A stretch of 64,000 bases of DNA from an uncultured Micavibrio sp. (lineage in GTDB: Bacteria; Pseudomonadota; Alphaproteobacteria; Micavibrionales; Micavibrionaceae): contig CAYZHM010000003.1 of the NCBI GenBank assembly GCA_964478225.1, forward strand, positions 64,632 through 128,631. Direction: 5' to 3'. A program made the position numbers and the translations under genes. Positions 37,891 to 48,268 of this stretch are shown piece after piece (position 1 is the stretch's first letter; each line of letters opens with the position of its first letter). Below the pieces are notes generated by a model. It had not been told where the DNA came from. It saw nothing but the letters and a program-made list of their open reading frames with translations, and made no database searches.

Positions 37891-39201
37891 TCATGTCAAA
37901 AAGTCCAAGATCGAAGGAACACTTAAAGCAACAACACTCGTCTGAATACTCTGCCGCGTTTGCAACGCCAGTAAATTCGCTCCGTCTTCATTCTGATCCG
38001 ATATGGTTAAATCGCTGCTTCCAGCCTTGAGCAGATTGATGGTTTCCTGGGTAAAGGTGTCGCGTGTTTCTAAAACACTATAATGGATACTTAAGGATGA
38101 AGCATAGCGGCGGAGATCCTCCCGGGCCTGCCGAACTTTATCAAGCTCGTCTGTAATTGATCTTAAATGATTGAAATTCACATCACCCAGCCCAAGGCCT
38201 CCACTGGTCGCGTCAATTCCATCAGTTTTCAATGATGTCGTCGCAGTAGGGCTAAGATAGGTTGTTAAAGATTCCTCTTTGAGAAGATTTAAGCCCCGGT
38301 AATTCGCATCTTTGGCCAGTGTATCAATCTGCTCTCTAAGCCCTGCATACTCTTCCGAAAACGATGTTTCAGCATCAGCTTCCAAAGTAGAAACCCCATT
38401 GGTAATATCATCTCCTACAAAACTTACATTTCGAAAATAGGCATCCCCGTCATCCCCGCCCCCATCGTCATCAGCAAGAAAAATCATATGAGAATAACTG
38501 CCAGTGAAATATTGCCCGACCGGAATAGATACAGTCACCCATTCGCCAGAGGCATCATATTGATAGGTGGGAATTGGCGCAGAATAGGTAAATCCCGTAA
38601 GCTGTGTTCCATACAAAAAGAAAAACTCATCGTTATTTATATAGTTATTATCTGTATCAAAACCGATGAGGGAAATTTCTGGAATGTTTGTACTTTTATA
38701 GTCAAATTGCAAAACGGTATTTTCAGTTAAAACATAATCAAACGCATACCTTTTCCATGCTCCGTTATCAAGAACAATACCTTGACCATTATTTATAGTA
38801 TTAACCGTCGATCCGGCAGGGTCCTGAGTTCCTGAGTAACTTAAAAAATCGGAGATATTTGAAAAATCAAGATGATACCCATCGACAAACTCTTCAATTC
38901 TTTCCTGTAAAAAAGCCTCGGAACTATCCAGAATTTTTTGAATGGCTTCAATCCCGTGCTCTGTTTCTTGAATGGTTCGTATACTATTGATAATCCCGTC
39001 ATGAACACTCCCAAGTCTTTTAGCCTGACTGTTGAGCGCGCGCGCTGTAAAAAAATTCTGAGGGTTATCAAGCGCACTATTAACATCTTGGCCTGTGGCC
39101 AAGCGTAAAGTCATTTCATCAATGGCACGGGACGTTTTCTGAATAGCGTCAAGACGCTGCTTCTGCTGACCGCTCAATATGCCTTCTGCACGCGAAACCA
39201 T
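37891..39201 (-). CDS. Flagellin/FlgL-family protein with inserted beta-rich central domain
   Basis: The N-terminus LRLATGQDVNSALDNPQNFFTARALNSQAKRL...IRTIQETEHGIEAIQKIL and the C-terminus DQNEDGANLLALQTRQSIQTSVVALSVPSILDFL match flagellin terminal helices. The central 250 aa or so is unrelated. Confidence 0.6.
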   Translation of the reverse strand: MVSRAEGILSGQQKQRLDAIQKTSRAIDEMTLRLATGQDVNSALDNPQNFFTARALNSQAKRLGSVHDGIINSIRTIQETEHGIEAIQKILDSSEAFLQERIEEFVDGYHLDFSNISDFLSYSGTQDPAGSTVNTINNGQGIVLDNGAWKRYAFDYVLTENTVLQFDYKSTNIPEISLIGFDTDNNYINNDEFFFLYGTQLTGFTYSAPIPTYQYDASGEWVTVSIPVGQYFTGSYSHMIFLADDDGGGDDGDAYFRNVSFVGDDITNGVSTLEADAETSFSEEYAGLREQIDTLAKDANYRGLNLLKEESLTTYLSPTATTSLKTDGIDATSGGLGLGDVNFNHLRSITDELDKVRQAREDLRRYASSLSIHYSVLETRDTFTQETINLLKAGSSDLTISDQNEDGANLLALQTRQSIQTSVVALSVPSILDFLT

Positions 39202-39387: not shown

Positions 39388-39627
39388 TTAAAGACCTAAA
39401 TGGGGCTTGTAGTTAACCTGGCGAGGGGCTCCCTCGCGAGTAACATGCTTTGCACCTGGTGAATTATTCGCATAACGCGCATTCATTTCAGCCACGAAGC
39501 CTGCTGAAACCTCTTCATTAATGGCCTCATCTTTTCTTTTCCAGCCACTACCAAGCTTGCTATCAATCTCACTAACAGCAGTTTCAACATCATCCAAAAC
39601 ATGACCATCATAAAGTTCAACTGACAT
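39388..39627 (-). CDS. Hypothetical small protein (79 aa)
   Basis: Strong SD AAGGAGG 9 nt upstream of the ATG, with its own terminator downstream. No recognisable motif. Confidence 0.55.
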   Translation of the reverse strand: MSVELYDGHVLDDVETAVSEIDSKLGSGWKRKDEAINEEVSAGFVAEMNARYANNSPGAKHVTREGAPRQVNYKPHLGL

Positions 39628-39808: not shown

Positions 39809-41197
39809 CTAGATATGAATCGGGCGCTTATCAACCGCAAGCGCCGCTTCCTTAACGACCTCGCTCAAAGTCGGGTGTGAGTGGCATGTGCGCGCAATAT
39901 CCTCAGCTGTACCCTGAAACTCCATCACAGCAACAACCTCAGCCATTAACTCACCCACATTGGGCCCAATCATATGAGCGCCGAGCACGCGATCTGTCTT
40001 GGCATCGGCCAAAATTTTCACGAATCCATCGGTCATGCCCATTGCCCGAGCGCGCCCATTCGCCATAAACGGAAACTTGCCGGCATTATATTGGACACCC
40101 TCGTCCTTAAGCTGTTCTTCGGTCTTGCCGACATTCGCAACCTCAGGCCATGTATAAACCACACCAGGGATCATGCCGTAATCAATATGCCCGGTCTGTC
40201 CGGCCAACATCTCCGCCAAAATAACACCTTCATCTTCGGCCTTGTGCGCGAGCATCGGCCCGGCGATCACATCACCTATGGCATAAATCCCCGGAACAGA
40301 GCTTTGGAAATGCGCATCCACCTTCACACGTCCGCGCTCATCCAAAGCCACGCCAGCCTTCTCCAAACCAAGCTTATCAGTATACGCCTTACGCCCAATC
40401 GCCATAAGAACAACATCCGCGCTTAACTTTTCACCAGCGCCTCCGGCCGCGGGCTCGACCATCAAATCAACGCCCTGCCCGTTGGATTTTGCCTTCGTCA
40501 CCTTGCTCGACAGCTTAAATTCCATGCCTTGCTTTTTGAAAATCTTCAAAGCTTCTTTGCGAATTTCACCGTCCATGCCCGGCAAAATATTATCCATAAA
40601 TTCTACAACTGTGACCTTCGCTCCCAAACGGCGATACACCGTTCCAAGCTCAAGGCCAATCACACCACCGCCAATCACCACCATGGTTTTCGGCACTTCG
40701 GAAAGCTCCAATGCGCCCGTCGATGAAACCACGCGCTTCTCATCTATATCAATACCGGGAAGCGAAATGACATCTGATCCTGTCGCAATAACTATGGTCT
40801 TACACGCGTAAGTCTCGGCGCCAACCTTGACCTTACCGGCCGCAACAATCTCTCCATGCCCTTTCAAGTGATCGATTTTGTTCTTTTTGAACAAAAACTC
40901 GATCCCCTTGGTATTGGCCTCAACAACCTCATCTTTAAAGGCCATCATCTTAGCCAAATCAAGTTTGGGGCTCACTTCAATACCGATATGCTCAAAATGC
41001 TTCTCGGCATCCTCAAACTTCTCAGAAGAATGCAACATGGCTTTCGAAGGGATACAGCCAATATTCAGACATGTTCCGCCCAGAGTTTCGCGCTTTTCCA
41101 CGCATGCGACCTTCATCCCAAGCTGCGCACAGCGTATCGCACATACATAGCCCCCAGGCCCTGCCCCAATCACAATAACATCGTAGTTTTCAGCCAT
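39809..41197 (-). CDS. lpdA: Dihydrolipoyl dehydrogenase (E3)
   Basis: 462 aa. FAD motif VIGAGPGGY, redox disulfide GGTCLNIGCIPSK, C-terminal HSHPTLSE. Confidence 0.96.
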   Translation of the reverse strand: MAENYDVIVIGAGPGGYVCAIRCAQLGMKVACVEKRETLGGTCLNIGCIPSKAMLHSSEKFEDAEKHFEHIGIEVSPKLDLAKMMAFKDEVVEANTKGIEFLFKKNKIDHLKGHGEIVAAGKVKVGAETYACKTIVIATGSDVISLPGIDIDEKRVVSSTGALELSEVPKTMVVIGGGVIGLELGTVYRRLGAKVTVVEFMDNILPGMDGEIRKEALKIFKKQGMEFKLSSKVTKAKSNGQGVDLMVEPAAGGAGEKLSADVVLMAIGRKAYTDKLGLEKAGVALDERGRVKVDAHFQSSVPGIYAIGDVIAGPMLAHKAEDEGVILAEMLAGQTGHIDYGMIPGVVYTWPEVANVGKTEEQLKDEGVQYNAGKFPFMANGRARAMGMTDGFVKILADAKTDRVLGAHMIGPNVGELMAEVVAVMEFQGTAEDIARTCHSHPTLSEVVKEAALAVDKRPIHI

Positions 41198-41281
41198 TTT
41201 TTGTGAGTATCCTTCTTACAAATTGCCTTTATTCTTTGTCTTTGTATGTACATCAAGCACAATGAAAAAAATAGATGAATA

Positions 41282-41309
41282 TTGACTTAAAAGAACAATT
41301 TCTTATAGG
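41282..41309 (+). promoter_or_regulatory. Possible sigma70-type promoter for the 341-aa/deaminase cassette
   Basis: TTGACT (41282-41287), 16-nt spacer, TATAGG (41304-41309), in an AT-rich 156-nt intergenic region. Confidence 0.35.
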
Positions 41310-41353
41310 ATCCAAGGCTTATACATAAAAAATAGATAGAACACGGCGGGAAG

Positions 41354-42379
41354 ATGGGTTCAACCAGTTACGTATATCATGCTCAAGCAAGCAAGCTCTT
41401 AGGCGACAAGGTTCACGCTTATGGCGTCCCTCCTATGGTGATTGACGGCAAAGAGTACCCTGCCGAACCAGAATACGGCGCTTGCTTTGCCAATGCTGGC
41501 GATCTCTATCACTACCGCGGGCTCCTCATGCAGATGGATGGCTTTCATCTTATTCCAAACGTGCAGAGAAATTTTGAATATGCAACATTTGGCCTTACCG
41601 CAGAGGATCCAAAAGTTCGCCAGAATTATATGGTTCGCATGCGTTTTGAATATGCCAAACATGCAGGGAAACGTCAGCCACGTGATACATCCATGGGCAT
41701 CAAAAGCAGTGGTAAAGATATCCGCCGTATTGAGATGGAAACTCATATCGGCCGTTCAACGCAGCTGGGTATGGCTCTCCGAAAAATACAGGCGCAATAC
41801 AACGATGTTTTGCCGGAAGAACTATCGTCTTTAAAGAAAAACCATCTAAGAGTAAGCAGTGTAACAGCTGTAAAGCGTGCGGGCTTTAATGCCCTTCATG
41901 TGTTACCAGATTATGATGCCTGCGTAACGCTTTTGTTGTCACAAGATTTCTGTGCAACTTCGACACCGCGCATGTACCAGCCCAACCAAAGATCTAAATT
42001 GGATATAGTCGGACAGCGTTTTGAAGGAGAAAGTGAAGCGGTGAGCCTGTATTCTCCAATCAAAGACCTAACTCCAGGAGAAGTCGATGAAATCATGCAG
42101 GCCTCATTGACAAAAATCCAAAATTACCTGGAAAACTCGACTGTCATAAGGCCTATCGAATGCAACCTCAGCAAGGTAGAACAGGCAGATGACTTTGTGA
42201 ACAACAGTACATACATTCCCGGTCAACATGAGGTCTTACACCCCGGCGACTATGCCGGGAGAGCAAATGGAAGACTGACCGCAGCTTTCCGCGAACTATT
42301 TAGAGGGCTACCATCCGCAGATAAAGTCCATGACATATCTGAAAGATTTGTAGCGCGCCCCCAACCTACCGCAGCTTAG
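41354..42379 (+). CDS. Hypothetical 341-aa protein
   Basis: Long ORF with balanced composition, no signal peptide and no recognisable motif. Its stop lies 1 nt before the deaminase-like start. Confidence 0.55.
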   Translation: MGSTSYVYHAQASKLLGDKVHAYGVPPMVIDGKEYPAEPEYGACFANAGDLYHYRGLLMQMDGFHLIPNVQRNFEYATFGLTAEDPKVRQNYMVRMRFEYAKHAGKRQPRDTSMGIKSSGKDIRRIEMETHIGRSTQLGMALRKIQAQYNDVLPEELSSLKKNHLRVSSVTAVKRAGFNALHVLPDYDACVTLLLSQDFCATSTPRMYQPNQRSKLDIVGQRFEGESEAVSLYSPIKDLTPGEVDEIMQASLTKIQNYLENSTVIRPIECNLSKVEQADDFVNNSTYIPGQHEVLHPGDYAGRANGRLTAAFRELFRGLPSADKVHDISERFVARPQPTAA

Positions 42380-42380
42380 A

Positions 42381-43214
42381 ATGCACGCAAATACGATCAT
42401 CAGCCATATGCAAACCGCCGTTGAAGCGGCGCAAACGAGCGAGCACCCAGACAGCAAAGTTGGCTCCTGCATTGTGGGAGACGGCTGGCAATTCTCCAGC
42501 CCCAACTTCTGGCCACAGCCCATACAAGATAAAATTGGGGCCGGTATCAGGGTCGGCAATTCATCCGGTACCATCCATGCGGAAACTGCCTGCTTGCTCC
42601 TCACCCCAAACGCGACATATGGCGCATCAATGTTCTCAACCGATCCGTCTTGCCCGAACTGCGCCAAGAACATGGCCGAGGCCGGCATCAAACATCTCTA
42701 TATCGACCACAAAGGTTTCGAAAAATATTTTCACCAAAAGCGTATGGCAGATTTTGAAACCCTCACTCTTGAAATTTGTACCGCTGCCGGGATAGGTGTA
42801 ACGCGCGTCTTTCGCAAAGAAGGGCGACTGGAAGAAATCATCGCTCCCGGAAATCCCGACCATGTTGAAGATTTTAGCCCGCATTTCGCTTCATGCGTCG
42901 CAAATGGCAAAGAACTCAAAGTCTATGGTGGGGCCAGCACAGGGCTTATCGCCCCTGACCCATATGAAGACAGCAAATATAATCTCCTAATGCAGCCACT
43001 CAATCGCCTTTTAATGATACTCGCCAAAGACGGTCTAAAACCGGCCCCGGTTTCCTTTATCTCCAGCCGCGTGCCTACATCGCGCGAGCTCGTCAACTTC
43101 ATCGGGGCGGGATATGACACAATGCAGATCCTGGACAAAACAGAGGGCCGCGATCCAGAAAGCCTGGTCGCATTCAATACCCTTCAGGAAAAAAATATTT
43201 TAAACGTCAAGTAG
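42381..43214 (+). CDS. dCMP/cytidine deaminase-fold protein with about 130-aa C-terminal extension
   Basis: Zinc motif HAETACLL, about 24 aa, then [20 protein letters not shown] (compare the dCMP deaminase pattern HAE...PCxxCAK.I..GI..V). N-terminal KVGSCIV. The C-terminal half is unassigned. Confidence 0.65.
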
Positions 43215-44393
43215 GAGACGCTGAGGATCTTCAAGCGCCTGCTTGATGCGCACCAGCGACGTCACAGCCTCTCGTCCGTCAACAATGCGGTGATCGTAAG
43301 ACAACGCCAGATACATCATCGGCCGCGCTTTGATTTCACCATTCGGCATTACCATCGGACGCTGCACGATATTATGCATGCCCAAAATCGCAGACTGCGG
43401 CGCATTCAAAATCGGCGTCGACATCATCGAACCGAAAATCCCACCATTGGTAATGGTAAACGTTCCGCCGGTCATCTCATCAATCGAGATCTTGCCGTCA
43501 CGCGCACGCGTTCCTAGGTCAACAATCTTGGCTTCAATTTCCGCCATCGACATCTGGTCCGCATCACGAAGAACCGGAACCACAAGACCTTGCGGCGCAG
43601 AAACCGCCACGCCGATGTCATAGTAGTTTTTGTAAATGATATCCGTTCCATCAATTTCGCCATTCACAGCCGGAAACTCTTTAAGCGCCTGAATAGCCGC
43701 CTTCACGAAGAACGACATAAAGCCCAACTTGATACCATGCTTCTTCTCAAAGCTGTCTTTGTACTGCGCGCGCAGATCCATAACCGCAGTCATGTCGACT
43801 TCATTGAACGTGGTAAGCATCGCTGCTGTGTTCTGAGCTTCTTTCAAACGCTTGGCGATCACCTGACGCAGCTTGGTCATTTTCACACGCTCTTCACGTG
43901 GCCCGGTCTCACGCGGAGCAGAAACCTTTGCCGGCGCAGGAGCAGCAGCCCCACCGCCACTCAAATAATTCTGAACATCTTCTTTATTAATGCGTCCACT
44001 GCTCGCAACCTGCGAAGGCTGCACATTATTGTCATCCATCATCTTGCGTGCAGACGGCGATGTTTTTGCAGACTCGATTGAAACGACAGGCGCGGCCTTA
44101 GGCACTTCTTTTTTAGCCTCAACAGGCTTCGGCGCATCATTCGCAACCGCACCCACATTTAGCTCACCCAAAATGGCGCCAACTTCAACAGTCTCGCCCT
44201 CACCAACAGTAATCTTCGCAATGACGCCATCCGACGGCGCGTTCACTTCCAAGGTGACCTTGTCCGTTTCAAGCTCTACAATCGGCTCATCAGCTTTGAC
44301 AGCCTCGCCTTCTTTTTTCAGCCATTGGGCAACAGTTGCCTCGGAAACAGATTCACCCAGTGTTGGAACCACGATTTGCGTCATATTGATCAC
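43200..44393 (-). CDS. sucB: Dihydrolipoamide succinyltransferase (E2 of 2-oxoglutarate dehydrogenase)
   Basis: Lipoyl domain [19 protein letters not shown] linker, catalytic SYDHRIVDG. Confidence 0.96.
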
Positions 44394-46120: not shown

Positions 46121-46819
46121 TTAATGGACGGCAAGGCCATGTTCTTCAACAGACGCCGCAGCCATATAGCCTAAAAGCTGGGTGGAGGATGCAAGAAAAG
46201 CACCTTTCTTCTTCATATATTTTGCAGCCTCAACGGTTCCCGGCGGATATATAAAATTGCCAGTTCCAATGGCATCAACAAGAACACAGACATTGAATTT
46301 CTTCTTCAATGCACTTTCAACGCTGCTACCAACGCAGTGACCGGCATTGACCCCGGAAACAATCAGGGTTTTAATCCCACGCCCCTTCAGAAGGTTCAAC
46401 AAATCCGTATCACGAAAAACATCATTCCTGTATTTCGCCATTGTAATATCATCCTGATCGGGGCAAACTTGATAAAATCCGCCACGATGCAGAGATGGAT
46501 CGCTCAAGGAATAATCATCATCGCCACACTGGGCAAAATAAGCAAAAATATGAAGTATGCGGTTGCTTTTAAAAGCCGGAATGATCGTTTGGGCAAGAGA
46601 GGCAGCAACATTCTCTGTCTCCTCATTCCCTTGAGCACCGAGACGATCTCCAGCATAGGAAGGATCACAAAACTGACGCTGAACATCAATAACGAGATGG
46701 GCGCATTCCGCATAGTTCGGCTGGCTGGCTGCAAAAAAGTCATGAAATGAGCTAGACGCAGCTTTGTGCCCCCAAAATCTCATATAAGGATAAACCCAAT
46801 CTTTGAGTATATGCGTCAT
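46121..46819 (-). CDS. Isochorismatase-family cysteine hydrolase embedded in the thi operon
   Basis: All three isochorismatase-family catalytic positions are present: LVIDVQRQF (Asp), AKYRNDVF (Lys), LIVSGVNAGHCVGSS (Cys). The ATG at 46819 overlaps the thiE stop as ATGA. Confidence 0.75.
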   Translation of the reverse strand: MTHILKDWVYPYMRFWGHKAASSSFHDFFAASQPNYAECAHLVIDVQRQFCDPSYAGDRLGAQGNEETENVAASLAQTIIPAFKSNRILHIFAYFAQCGDDDYSLSDPSLHRGGFYQVCPDQDDITMAKYRNDVFRDTDLLNLLKGRGIKTLIVSGVNAGHCVGSSVESALKKKFNVCVLVDAIGTGNFIYPPGTVEAAKYMKKKGAFLASSTQLLGYMAAASVEEHGLAVH

Positions 46820-47448
46820 GACTGTGGGTATAAGCCACAACTGCGCAATATGTCAATAAATTTTCTTGTTGCTGCTTCAGGATCCACGGCCTCGCTTATA
46901 CTCCGCATCATCGCCACTCCATCCGCACCAGCCTCAATGACTGCCGCTGCGTTCTCTGGCGTAATCCCGCCGATCCCCACAACCGGAACCGGCGACAATT
47001 TTACAAGCGCCGCAAACTTTTCTGCGCCAAGCACAGGTTTCCCTTTGTCTGTTTTGGTTTCATAGAAAGGCCCCGTTCCGATATAATCAACCACTGCCGG
47101 ATCAACGGCCTTAATCTGCTCTTCAGTAAACGCCGTCACACCGATAATTTTATCCGGCCCTAAAATCGCCCGCGCCTTGGCCGCATCCATATCCCCCTGC
47201 CCCAGATGAACCCCATCCGCATCAATGCCCTTCGCAATATAGACATGATCGTTGATAAGAAGAGGAACAGACAATTGCGCCGCTTTCATTCGCCGGGCAT
47301 TTTCGAGGGCATCATTAGATTTGTCGCGCAACTGCACCATGGTCACACCACCACGCACCGCCGCCAATGTGACATCAACCGGGTCACGGCCAGCGCATAA
47401 AGAAGGATCACAAACGAAATAAGGAGAAAGATTTAAATTTTTGAGCAT
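46816..47448 (-). CDS. thiE: Thiamine-phosphate synthase
   Basis: VTMVQLRDK, GADGVHLGQGD, IGGITPENA motifs. ATG at 47448 preferred over the longer track ORF. Confidence 0.9.
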   Translation of the reverse strand: MLKNLNLSPYFVCDPSLCAGRDPVDVTLAAVRGGVTMVQLRDKSNDALENARRMKAAQLSVPLLINDHVYIAKGIDADGVHLGQGDMDAAKARAILGPDKIIGVTAFTEEQIKAVDPAVVDYIGTGPFYETKTDKGKPVLGAEKFAALVKLSPVPVVGIGGITPENAAAVIEAGADGVAMMRSISEAVDPEAATRKFIDILRSCGLYPQS

Positions 47449-47521: not shown

Positions 47522-48268
47522 ATGAATTTGAAGACCCTTACAAAGCCCTTTAAGAGAGCGATTGCAACACTCGGAATAGGAAATCCTCATACGGGATACG
47601 ACAATTCCGAAGCAGCCTTAATGATGGCAGGTGTAAAACCAGTTGGTATTTTTGGCGACACGCAAATAACAGCCCAACTACAAATCGCAATACATAAAGG
47701 AAACATCATTGTTGCTGGCGAGTTTCCTTTCAAACAAATATATCGAGTTTACTGCAAGCATGATGAATTAGAAAAAGCAAAACAGGCAATTAATTCTTTA
47801 AAAGGCGGGGAACGATCCGAGATATATAATTTTACAATTGCTAATGTTTATGAAGGGTGGTCTCCCGGCCCCGAGGAAAAAGACCTCGAAGAGGGAAAAC
47901 TAACTTTTATCGACTTTGAAATGGAATCTACAATTTTTGTTTTGGCTCAAAAAGACAAAATAAAAGATGCGCACGAATTAATTATTTTATACTACAATGA
48001 CATCTTCGAAAGTCCCTATATATCAGCCGAAAGACGCCGACAATTGCAATCTACGGAATGGGAAGAGGGCAGCGCTTTGGTAGGAAAAATTTTAGGCTTC
48101 ACAGACAATGACATTGCCTGGTTCAACGGCGAGAAATACCAAAACCCCGTAATAAAAGGGTTGATGACATATACAAACGACTGGCGGCAAACAATTCGTC
48201 AAGAAATCATGCTCGAAGACGCCGAAGACCGTTTTTCAGGCTTAAAATCACCCGAAAATAATCTCTAA
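47522..48268 (+). CDS. Hypothetical protein
   Basis: 248-aa ORF, AT-richer than its neighbours, no recognisable motif. Convergent 4-nt overlap with sucA. Confidence 0.5.
   Translation: MNLKTLTKPFKRAIATLGIGNPHTGYDNSEAALMMAGVKPVGIFGDTQITAQLQIAIHKGNIIVAGEFPFKQIYRVYCKHDELEKAKQAINSLKGGERSEIYNFTIANVYEGWSPGPEEKDLEEGKLTFIDFEMESTIFVLAQKDKIKDAHELIILYYNDIFESPYISAERRRQLQSTEWEEGSALVGKILGFTDNDIAWFNGEKYQNPVIKGLMTYTNDWRQTIRQEIMLEDAEDRFSGLKSPENNL

Follow-up and report, generated by a model that had tools for sequence, protein, structure and literature searches.

A predicted tunnel metalloenzyme gene beside a two-domain dCMP-deaminase-like gene in the lpdA–sucB interval of an uncultured Micavibrio

Organisation of the lpdA–sucB region

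Micavibrio-like bacteria are epibiotic predators. The window analysed here is the whole 64,000-nucleotide stretch of DNA from an uncultured Micavibrio sp. of the Micavibrionaceae, and within it two plus-strand genes lie between lpdA and sucB (Table 1). The junction between the two genes, which we call ORF341 and the deaminase gene, reads GCT TAG A ATG. The spacer is thus a single nucleotide, and inspection of the junction sequence found no AGGAG-like motif before the deaminase ATG. At its other end the deaminase gene converges with sucB; the two overlap by 15 nt (43200–43214), and in two relatives the corresponding overlap is 9 nt. The first-pass annotation of this DNA had described the same layout, including the missing Shine–Dalgarno sequence ahead of the second gene, and the open reading frames and the sequence confirm it. 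A public gene call places the start of the deaminase at Met10, which gives a protein of 268 aa and a spacer of 28 nt. Just past sucB are thiL, thiD and thiE, an arrangement kept in many relatives.

Table 1. Coordinates of the genes, domains and intergenic region discussed (positions in the window)
Feature	Position	Strand	Description
lpdA (dihydrolipoyl dehydrogenase)	39809–41197	−	conserved left flank, divergent from ORF341
lpdA–ORF341 intergenic region	41198–41353		156 bp, AT-richer, divergent
ORF341, 341 aa	41354–42379	+	predicted divergent triphosphate tunnel metalloenzyme (CYTH-like) protein
Deaminase gene, 277 aa	42381–43214	+	between ORF341 and sucB
Deaminase N-terminal domain, residues ~1–150	42381–42830	+	zinc-dependent CDA fold, dCMP-deaminase-like, H66/E68 and C91/C94
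Deaminase C-terminal domain, residues ~160–277 and stop codon	42858–43214	+	conserved family-wide
sucB (E2 of 2-oxoglutarate dehydrogenase)	43200–44393	−	conserved right flank

The intergenic region upstream of ORF341 has a GC content of ~0.42. It holds a promoter-like site on the plus strand (TTGACT-18-TAGGAT, 41282–41311), the score of which is no better than that of shuffled sequence; the promoter and terminator scan of the locus gave nothing beyond what shuffles yield. An Rfam scan of the region returned no family at gathering score and none that was credible.

Predicted fold of ORF341

ORF341 has no match in Pfam, NCBIfam or PADLOC. A word-indexed search returned the query alone, as expected of an orphan; this was overturned by a full, exhaustive phmmer search, which retrieved 26 relatives. 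Residues E38, E40, K117, R125, E127, E129, R175, D198, E224, E226 and E228 are invariant in the family, and R97, K121 and K274 are nearly so. The motif residues (ExE, RxR including R95/R97, K, RxExE and ExExE) fall on predicted β-strands. The AF2 model of ORF341 (pLDDT 90.6) has eight long β-strands and was compared with the PDB using Foldseek. The six top matches are all triphosphate tunnel metalloenzyme (TTM)/CYTH proteins: E. coli YgiF (5a60), Arabidopsis TTM3 (AtTTM3, 5a67), a CYTH adenylyl cyclase (8h92), mouse thiamine triphosphatase (ThTPase, 2jmu), P. horikoshii PH1819 (2een) and S. acidocaldarius TTM (SaTTM, 7ns8), with E-values from 2.4e-7 to 6.4e-5 and a probability of 1.0. The TM-scores against solved TTMs are moderate (0.29–0.57). 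The first-pass annotation had regarded the 341-residue protein as entirely unassignable; the AF2 model and the Foldseek matches instead place it in the TTM/CYTH fold. On the strength of the model we assign ORF341 as a divergent, CYTH-like TTM with a predicted eight-stranded antiparallel β fold.

Sequence profiles do not recover this relationship. Pfam CYTH (PF01928) matched neither ORF341 nor 23 relatives, and profile searches with the family against the PDB and Pfam gave no informative match. A more distant homologue, the ORF upstream of the deaminase in a relative, reaches 21.9 bits against the Pfam CYTH cut-off of 23.2 (E 1.7e-4). Of the N-terminal ExExK motif, E38-x-E40 is kept in the family and the lysine is not conserved, the segment reading W-E-P-E-x-(S/G). 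ORF341 ends in Ala-Ala, which might have pointed to a specific degron or to secretion; this ending is a genome-wide trait and carries no specific information.

The presence of adenylyl cyclase 8h92 among the top fold matches raises the idea that ORF341 might belong to the class IV (CyaB-like) nucleotide cyclases and make a cyclic nucleotide signal, with the deaminase modulating its substrate or product. The fold by itself cannot tell cyclases from hydrolases. However, the best fold matches are tripolyphosphatases and no effector or receptor gene was found linked at related loci, and we give a signalling cyclase hardly any credence.

The deaminase and its fixed position

The deaminase carries HAE (H66-A67-E68) and [20 protein letters not shown]. 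Residues 8–108 match Pfam PF00383 above the gathering score (30.9 bits, cut-off 25), and H66-A67-E68 and C91-P92-N93-C94 are invariant among 35 family members; the zinc-deaminase signature recognised in the first-pass annotation is thus present, with H-A-E and C-P-x-C intact. The PHROG dCMP deaminase family phrog_174 also matches (E 2.9e-16), and sequence matches of the N-terminal domain in the PDB are 4p9c, 1vq2 and 2w4l. Foldseek places dCMP deaminases at every rank from 1 to 15 (TM-score to target 0.61–0.78), among them those of human, cyanophage S-TIM5, S. mutans, T4 and PBCV-1; RibD and TadA rank below them. A search of viral predicted structures (BFVD) again found dCMP deaminases to be nearest. 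The ComEB equivalog model TIGR02571 was not reached (19.6 bits, cut-off 219.45). The motif HAETAC is invariant in the family, whereas two aligned solved dCMP deaminases have HAExNA (HAEQNA in 4p9c and HAELNA in 1vq2). From this sequence difference, the substrate of the deaminase may be other than plain dCMP.

The same genome encodes a canonical dCTP deaminase, dcd (163.9 bits, cut-off 92.8). The remaining CDA-fold genes are a TadA-like gene, ribD and a receiver-fused deaminase. The search of the genome for a further dcd or comEB, proposed with the original description of the locus, located dcd and found no second dCMP-deaminase-like gene.

The C-terminal half of the deaminase had been noted as lacking an assignment, and this is real: profile searches with the domain against the PDB and Pfam gave no informative match, and in whole-model Foldseek searches (PDB and BFVD) the N-terminal domain alone was matched. 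The domain is nevertheless modelled confidently by AF2, with the order β-β-α-β-α-β-α, and K199, Y200, P206, M212, G218, P232, R235, E236, R257 and A264 are invariant. Aligning the N-terminal half with the C-terminal half by hhalign gave only a 12-column match (P 0.018, probability 2.6%), suggestive but not significant, which lies where α3 and β4 correspond topologically in the two halves. Most likely the domain has a regulatory role or is a pseudo-deaminase, and it may have arisen as a second deaminase-like domain that has since degenerated. The extension is found throughout the lineage, an outcome that the first-pass annotation had allowed for. Its remark that 277 aa is unusually long holds against classical dCMP deaminases but not within the protein's own family, where lengths are ~280–340 aa and this member is among the shortest aligned.

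We retrieved 627 homologues of the deaminase. The best 120 of the 627 cover 54–100% of the query, mostly 96–100%. The gene was found in 22 of 24 other genera of Micavibrionaceae, with both halves in one frame. The order lpdA(−)/deaminase(+)/sucB(−) is seen in nearly all of ~120 related loci, and the deaminase also occupies the lpdA/sucB slot in families related to Micavibrionaceae. Across these loci lpdA is 65–82% identical and always on the same side of the deaminase. Such constancy shows the deaminase to be an old, lineage-wide resident, probably settled in antiparallel orientation between the two flanking genes before the radiation of the family. The earlier proposal that a two-gene cassette had been inserted between lpdA and sucB is not upheld, since the deaminase holds the slot family-wide and beyond, and the impression of a mobile or defence cassette is corrected.

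Nucleotide-depletion defence against phage had been among the roles suggested for the pair. In such a system, or in another kind of conflict system, the deaminase would deplete dCTP or dCMP on infection and the tunnel enzyme would serve as sensor or co-effector. In favour of this, the deaminase core weakly matches NF041025, the model for anti-phage dCTP deaminase (E 0.0015), and a PADLOC dCTPase model (E 7e-4), with which it shares the zinc core motif around PCxxC. The partner gene is also patchy and very fast-evolving, mean identity being ~20% in the ORF341 family compared with 44% in the deaminase and 74% in lpdA. The matches to the defence models are, however, far below threshold, at 17.5 bits against a cut-off of 400 for NF041025 (model positions 337–386 of 437 only) and 16.5 bits for PADLOC PDLC02373 (positions 439–487 of 630), and are confined to the ~45 residues that surround the common zinc motif. 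The anti-phage enzyme also has another domain architecture. Defence genes are not expected to behave like this deaminase, which is near-universal and fixed family-wide inside a core TCA cluster rather than in a defence island, and the neighbouring variable genes are metabolic. The sub-threshold scores and the fixed synteny make a defence role very unlikely.

Linkage of the two genes and proposed function

A profile search of 301 genomes of the order Micavibrionales found the ORF341 family in 23, at one locus per genome. The family adjoins the deaminase in ~17–18 of 20 fetched regions and also in genomes G003 and G040. In an independent sample of 80 deaminase loci (records named Micavibrio, Pseudobdellovibrionaceae or Alphaproteobacteria MAGs) it lies next to the deaminase in 15. 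In at least three genera (g4, g9 and g54) a PfkB kinase sits between the ORF341 relative and the deaminase. About 80% of deaminase-bearing genomes, including that of the closest relative (62% identity), are without the ORF341 family, and the deaminase therefore does not need the tunnel enzyme. The question posed earlier, whether the 341-residue family always accompanies this deaminase, thus has a divided answer: the pair is syntenic in most carriers of the family, but the deaminase more often occurs without it. The ORF341 family appears from these searches to be small, fast-evolving and specific to Micavibrionales.

The gap between lpdA and the deaminase varies across relatives from ~110 bp to ~3.8 kb. 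Elsewhere it contains LOG-like proteins (930–980 aa), a CDA-fold deaminase (150 aa), an AMP nucleosidase (450 bits, cut-off 307) and a carbamoylase-like amidohydrolase. The gap is a variable slot that appears to gather nucleotide-metabolism genes in the Micavibrio lineage. Genes with no link to nucleotides also occur there, namely an MFS transporter, pilus-like genes and a nucleotidyltransferase.

Such heterogeneous contents would suit functional independence of the two genes, with the deaminase acting by itself as a dCMP deaminase particular to the lineage and ORF341 being one of many unrelated passengers in a recombination-prone slot. So would the finding that in most genomes, that of the nearest relative included, the deaminase either has no companion or shares the slot with other genes, and the slightly lower GC of ORF341 (~0.44–0.48, against 0.50–0.53 for the deaminase). 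Against this, each of the 23 genomes has the ORF341 family at one locus, which in most of them is next to the deaminase; the gene nearly always runs in the same direction as, and lies immediately upstream of, the deaminase or the kinase–deaminase pair; and here the close spacing of the two genes also speaks for association. Pairwise identities within the ORF341 family also correlate with the lpdA identities (Spearman 0.37), a pattern more in keeping with long-term residence than with repeated arrival at random. We consider a mere passenger unlikely.

The nearby thi genes prompt a different reading, in which the tunnel enzyme is ThTPase-like and the deaminase or the kinase acts on the aminopyrimidine moiety of thiamine, with a link to thiE–thiD–thiL and the ThDP-dependent SucA. 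Mouse ThTPase is among the fold matches of ORF341, the placing of the thi genes past sucB is conserved in many relatives, and the PfkB kinase faintly matches phosphomethylpyrimidine kinase (E 0.009). Yet the nearest structures to the deaminase are all dCMP deaminases, the thi genes are on the opposite strand and beyond sucB, and the slot occupants elsewhere include nucleotide enzymes and none for thiamine. The ThTPase match is also weaker than the polyphosphatase matches. A thiamine role accordingly seems highly improbable.

Our best reading, to which we would give slightly better than an even chance, is that the two-domain deaminase and an accessory TTM partner form a pyrimidine-nucleotide processing operon. 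ORF341 and the deaminase gene would be one transcription unit, expressed from the promoter region divergent from lpdA. Hydrolysis of a triphosphate would fall to the tunnel enzyme, the likeliest substrate being a (deoxy)nucleoside triphosphate of cytosine, and the PfkB (ribokinase-family) kinase, where present, would phosphorylate a nucleoside. Both would supply cytosine nucleotide to the deaminase, which would convert it into uracil nucleotide, and this pathway would run beside the canonical Dcd route of the genome. Among the three roles mooted in the first-pass annotation, unusual pyrimidine salvage is the one that we infer to fit best, while nucleotide-depletion defence is left with the sub-threshold matches described above.

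A bolder version can be put forward, which we regard as doubtful. Together with the PfkB kinase, where there is one, the tunnel enzyme and the deaminase would constitute an undescribed pyrimidine-nucleotide pathway specific to Micavibrio-like predators, leading for example from a (modified) cytosine NTP or nucleoside through the monophosphate to a nucleotide of uracil or thymine. The pseudo-deaminase domain at the C-terminus would be a new allosteric module, and the extreme divergence of the tunnel enzyme an adaptation to differing prey nucleotide pools. The genome paper on M. aeruginosavorus, however, reports that the species has a complete set of genes for nucleotide synthesis and lacks known nucleotide transporters (PMC3189940), which speaks against taking dependence on prey nucleotides for granted. 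Strain ARL-13 of this species, for which attack-phase and attachment-phase RNA-seq has been published (PMC3189940), has orthologous kinase–deaminase genes.

If these assignments are correct, ORF341 represents a new TTM/CYTH family missed by current profile libraries, and its near-obligate linkage to a cytosine-nucleotide deaminase would be the first strong genomic clue to the substrate class of this family. The two-domain dCMP-deaminase architecture would be a signature of predatory Micavibrionaceae, set within the 2-oxoglutarate dehydrogenase cluster. The two enzymes could also add a step to the pyrimidine metabolism of obligate predators that are considered as living antibacterials. Both proteins are small, soluble-looking and easily assayed.

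Five solved TTMs among the best matches of ORF341 (YgiF, Arabidopsis TTM3, mouse ThTPase, PH1819 and S. acidocaldarius TTM) share with its model the eight long antiparallel β-strands, one face of which would be lined by the alternating invariant Glu, Arg and Lys residues. ORF341 differs from TTMs in being bigger, with an extra N-terminal helix and ~100 C-terminal helical residues, and in lacking both the lysine of ExExK and a Pfam CYTH match. The best structural matches of the deaminase are classical dCMP deaminases (human DCTD 2w4l, T4 Cd 1vq2, S. mutans ComEB-type 2hvw, S-TIM5 4p9c and PBCV-1 bi-DCD 7fh4). These have in common with its N-terminal ~150 residues the CDA fold, the catalytic H-A-E motif, the C-P-x-C zinc ligands and the subsequent A-x-x-(I/M)-x-x-x-G-I helix, although sequence identity is just 17–24%. 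The C-terminal domain, ~120–170 residues in the family, has no counterpart in the solved or viral predicted structures retrieved. We know of no described TTM with strict linkage to a deaminase gene. In plant TTM1 and TTM2 a uridine-kinase-like domain is fused to CYTH; the combination of a nucleoside-kinase-type module with a tunnel metalloenzyme parallels the order ORF341 family–PfkB–deaminase in three genera. The plant proteins differ in having a P-loop uridine kinase rather than a PfkB/ribokinase, a fusion rather than an operon, and no deaminase.

Gene order between lpdA and sucB

Two plus-strand genes, encoding a 341-residue protein (ORF341) and a 277-residue deaminase, lie between lpdA and sucB, and the junction joining them reads TAG-A-ATG. 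The raw sequence contains no Shine-Dalgarno-like motif ahead of the deaminase ATG at this junction. The deaminase gene and sucB are convergent and overlap by 15 nt. In all of these points the layout is as described in the first-pass annotation. In one public annotation the deaminase begins at Met10, giving 268 residues and a spacer of 28 nt to ORF341. The tight convergent junction with sucB recurs in two relatives with a 9 nt overlap (L016:3851-3859 and L019:9593-9601); in other relatives the two genes stand 40 bp to 2 kb apart. The two nearest deaminase relatives (L161:2829-3699 and L162:5892-6632) carry extra co-directional ORFs of 231-246 residues, without Pfam matches, between the deaminase gene and sucB, thus this junction is also a variable site.

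Genes in and around the lpdA-sucB interval (window positions)
Feature	Position	Strand	Source
Flagellin-like gene	37891-39201		
79-aa ORF	39388-39627		
lpdA	39809-41197	-	ORF list and raw sequence
ORF341, 341 aa	41354-42379	+	ORF list and raw sequence
Deaminase, 277 aa	42381-43214	+	ORF list and raw sequence
sucB	43200-44393	-	ORF list and raw sequence
Isochorismatase-like gene inside thiE-thiD-thiL	46121-46840		
248-aa ORF	47522-48268		

Micavibrionaceae, to which the window belongs, are epibiotic predators. When one genome per species was scanned for the pattern of the deaminase alignment, 80 loci came up, in records named Micavibrio, Pseudobdellovibrionaceae or Alphaproteobacteria MAGs, among them a complete M. 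aeruginosavorus chromosome. Homologues number 627; the best 120 are mostly ~280-340 residues long and most cover 96-100% of the query. Among whole genomes, 22 of the 24 other genera of the family possess the gene, and both halves match within a single open frame. Mapping the window genes onto 20 + 20 + 80 related loci gave almost everywhere the order xerC(+), lpdA(-), a variable slot, deaminase(+), sucB(-), usually thiL-thiD-thiE(-), then sucA(-). The deaminase gene is therefore long established here and was not inserted in this genome, contrary to the original description of an inserted cassette. Nor is the protein unusually extended for its family; the extension is the norm there. The window copy ranks among the shortest of the aligned members, since a helix-containing linker segment of longer members is missing from it.

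The slot between lpdA and the deaminase gene, filled here by ORF341, holds a 930-980-residue protein at L020:10926-13802 and at L022, L023, L026, L027 and L029. This protein has a C-terminal LOG/TIGR00730-type domain (PF03641) and a faint Ham1-like stretch, and is often paired with a 150-residue CDA-fold (zinc-dependent) deaminase, 78-87% identical between genomes. Elsewhere the slot contains an AMP nucleosidase (equivalog level), a carbamoylase or allantoate-amidohydrolase-like enzyme, or PfkB kinases; unrelated genes (MFS transporter, nucleotidyltransferase, pilus-like) also occur, and sometimes the slot is empty (gap 110-190 bp). The slot is thus variable, and its contents are enriched in genes of nucleotide and nucleobase metabolism.

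A tblastn search (E 1e-3) of 20 related Micavibrionaceae loci recovered thiL, thiD, thiE, sucA, sucB, lpdA and xerC. It found no counterpart of the isochorismatase-like, 248-aa, flagellin-like and 79-aa genes, which thus look specific to this genome.

Family and fold of ORF341

ORF341 has no match in Pfam, NCBIfam or PADLOC. A word-indexed homologue search returned the query alone and a single-sequence search of same-family genomes gave no match. When 1.8 billion representatives were searched exhaustively with phmmer, 26 relatives of ~340-440 residues emerged, the best at 41% identity. Their alignment has E38, E40, K117, R125, E127, E129, R175, D198, E224, E226 and E228 invariant and R97, K121 and K274 near-invariant. 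In the AF2 model (pLDDT 90.6, pTM 0.89) the conserved residues occupy alternating positions on eight long β-strands. The top Foldseek matches in the PDB are triphosphate tunnel metalloenzymes (TTMs): E. coli YgiF (E 2.4e-7), Arabidopsis TTM3, a CYTH adenylyl cyclase, mouse thiamine triphosphatase, PH1819 and Sulfolobus TTM. Yeast Cet1, another tunnel enzyme, is a weak match (rank 19, E 9.5e-3, probability 0.33). A distant homologue in the same slot of another genome matches Pfam CYTH with E 1.7e-4, just under the cut-off. Together the fold matches, conserved residues and distant CYTH match place ORF341, as modelled, in the TTM/CYTH fold. It is a divergent member: the Lys of the canonical ExExK is absent and TM-scores to solved TTMs are moderate (0.29-0.57). 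The protein can no longer be called unassignable, and we have filed its family as a new one with a predicted TTM/CYTH fold, not as a member of Pfam CYTH. That ORF341 is a CyaB-like cyclase seems to us scarcely credible.

We note that ORF341 ends in ..PTAA, and 11 of 24 family members end in AA. Ala-Ala, the most frequent C-terminal dipeptide by a wide margin, terminates 89 of 1217 (7.3%) stop-to-stop ORFs of ≥250 residues in this genome (the next dipeptide, AE, 20), usually after a Lys-rich stretch (..KKxAA) and on apparent housekeeping genes. Examples are window 42374-42379 and, on contig C3, 117249-118487 and 116348-117223. The aragorn-predicted tmRNA tag also ends ..VAIAA. The ending could reflect a degron, the context of termination or a trait of the lineage.

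Association of the two genes and proposed role

A profile search located the tunnel-enzyme family in 23 of 301 genomes of the order (9 of 84 genera), at one locus each. The pairing holds in one direction: all 23 lie inside the lpdA/deaminase/sucB neighbourhood, while ~80% of genomes with the deaminase are without the family. Most of the 23 are co-directional and directly upstream of the deaminase gene; a PfkB-family kinase intervenes in at least three genera (g4, g9, g54). In one genome the gene is downstream and convergent, and genus g5 is rearranged, with the tunnel enzyme beside lpdA and the deaminase beside sucB. At L057 the adjacent deaminase (21% identical to the window copy) was too divergent for tblastn and was recovered by profile. 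Among the 80 independent loci, 15 have the family upstream of the deaminase. The closest relative (deaminase 62% identical) has no ORF341 gene, only 76 bp separating lpdA from the deaminase. Our literature search turned up no mention of this linkage.

Compared over one and the same set of 24 loci, the tunnel enzyme averages 19.5% pairwise identity, the deaminase 44% and lpdA 74%. Tunnel-enzyme identities correlate with those of lpdA (Spearman 0.37), thus long residence with repeated loss fits better than repeated import. That the two genes are independent passengers we consider unlikely.

ORF341 and the deaminase gene would be transcribed together as an operon from the 156-bp region that separates ORF341 from the divergent lpdA; this region has one weak promoter-like site and no riboswitch. 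A triphosphate may be the substrate of the tunnel enzyme, with a cytosine (deoxy)nucleoside triphosphate the most plausible candidate, and a nucleoside that of the PfkB kinase, where present; the deaminase would then convert the resulting cytosine nucleotide. A role in phage defence, raised at first pass, is quite improbable, given scores far below cut-offs and synteny fixed in the core genome. A thiamine-related role could draw on the nearby thi genes and the thiamine triphosphatase among the ORF341 fold matches; we judge it very improbable. The pair is probably a lineage-specific metabolic module, not a mobile or defence cassette, and the finding is therefore less exotic than first thought, though real and more ordered. 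The M. aeruginosavorus genome paper describes nucleotide synthesis as complete and reports no known transporter of nucleotides (PMC3189940), so we make no claim of dependence on prey nucleotides. New here are a TTM-fold family missed by profile libraries and a two-domain dCMP-deaminase-like architecture.

The deaminase and known deaminases

The deaminase carries HAE and [20 protein letters not shown], the zinc signature recognised at first pass, and PF00383 matches residues 8-108 (30.9 bits, gathering score 25). H66, A67, E68, C91, P92, N93 and C94 are invariant among 35 aligned members. Its PHROGs match is 'dCMP deaminase' (E 2.9e-16). The best PDB matches of the AF2 model (pLDDT 93) are exclusively dCMP deaminases (human DCTD, cyanophage S-TIM5, S. 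mutans, T4, PBCV-1; TM to target 0.61-0.78), RibD and TadA ranking below, and a viral predicted-structure library gives the same picture. These matches span ~110-240 alignment columns (typically 140-170), in the N-terminal domain only.

Four PF00383 proteins are encoded in the genome: this one, a TadA-like protein (125 bits, under the 150-bit equivalog cut-off), RibD and a protein in which a deaminase is joined to a response-regulator receiver. The fusion (288 residues; contig C2, L076:1363-2229, minus strand) keeps HAE in its CDA fold and apparently misses the usual PCxxC pair. A canonical dCTP deaminase lies ~11 kb beyond the window (163.9 bits, cut-off 92.8), and there is a dUTPase-like match. 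By this inventory the deaminase is the only dCMP-deaminase-like gene of the genome and not the only possible route to dUMP.

Identity to classical dCMP deaminases is 17-24%, the score on the ComEB equivalog model (19.6 bits) falls far short of the cut-off of 219, and the family has HAETAC where two aligned solved dCMP deaminases have HAExNA. We therefore label the protein dCMP-deaminase-like; its substrate may differ from plain dCMP. The C-terminal domain (about residues 160-277) matches nothing in PDB or Pfam by sequence and has many invariant polar residues, including K199, Y200, R235, E236 and R257. Its AF2 secondary structure, β-β-α-β-α-β-α, is the deaminase-fold order minus the first helix. 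Between the halves hhalign aligns a single stretch, at the corresponding α3-β4 position ([12 protein letters not shown] against [12 protein letters not shown]), and this match falls short of significance (P 0.018). The C-terminal domain may be a second deaminase-like domain that has degenerated, analogous to the zinc-less C-terminal domain of E. coli cytidine deaminase.
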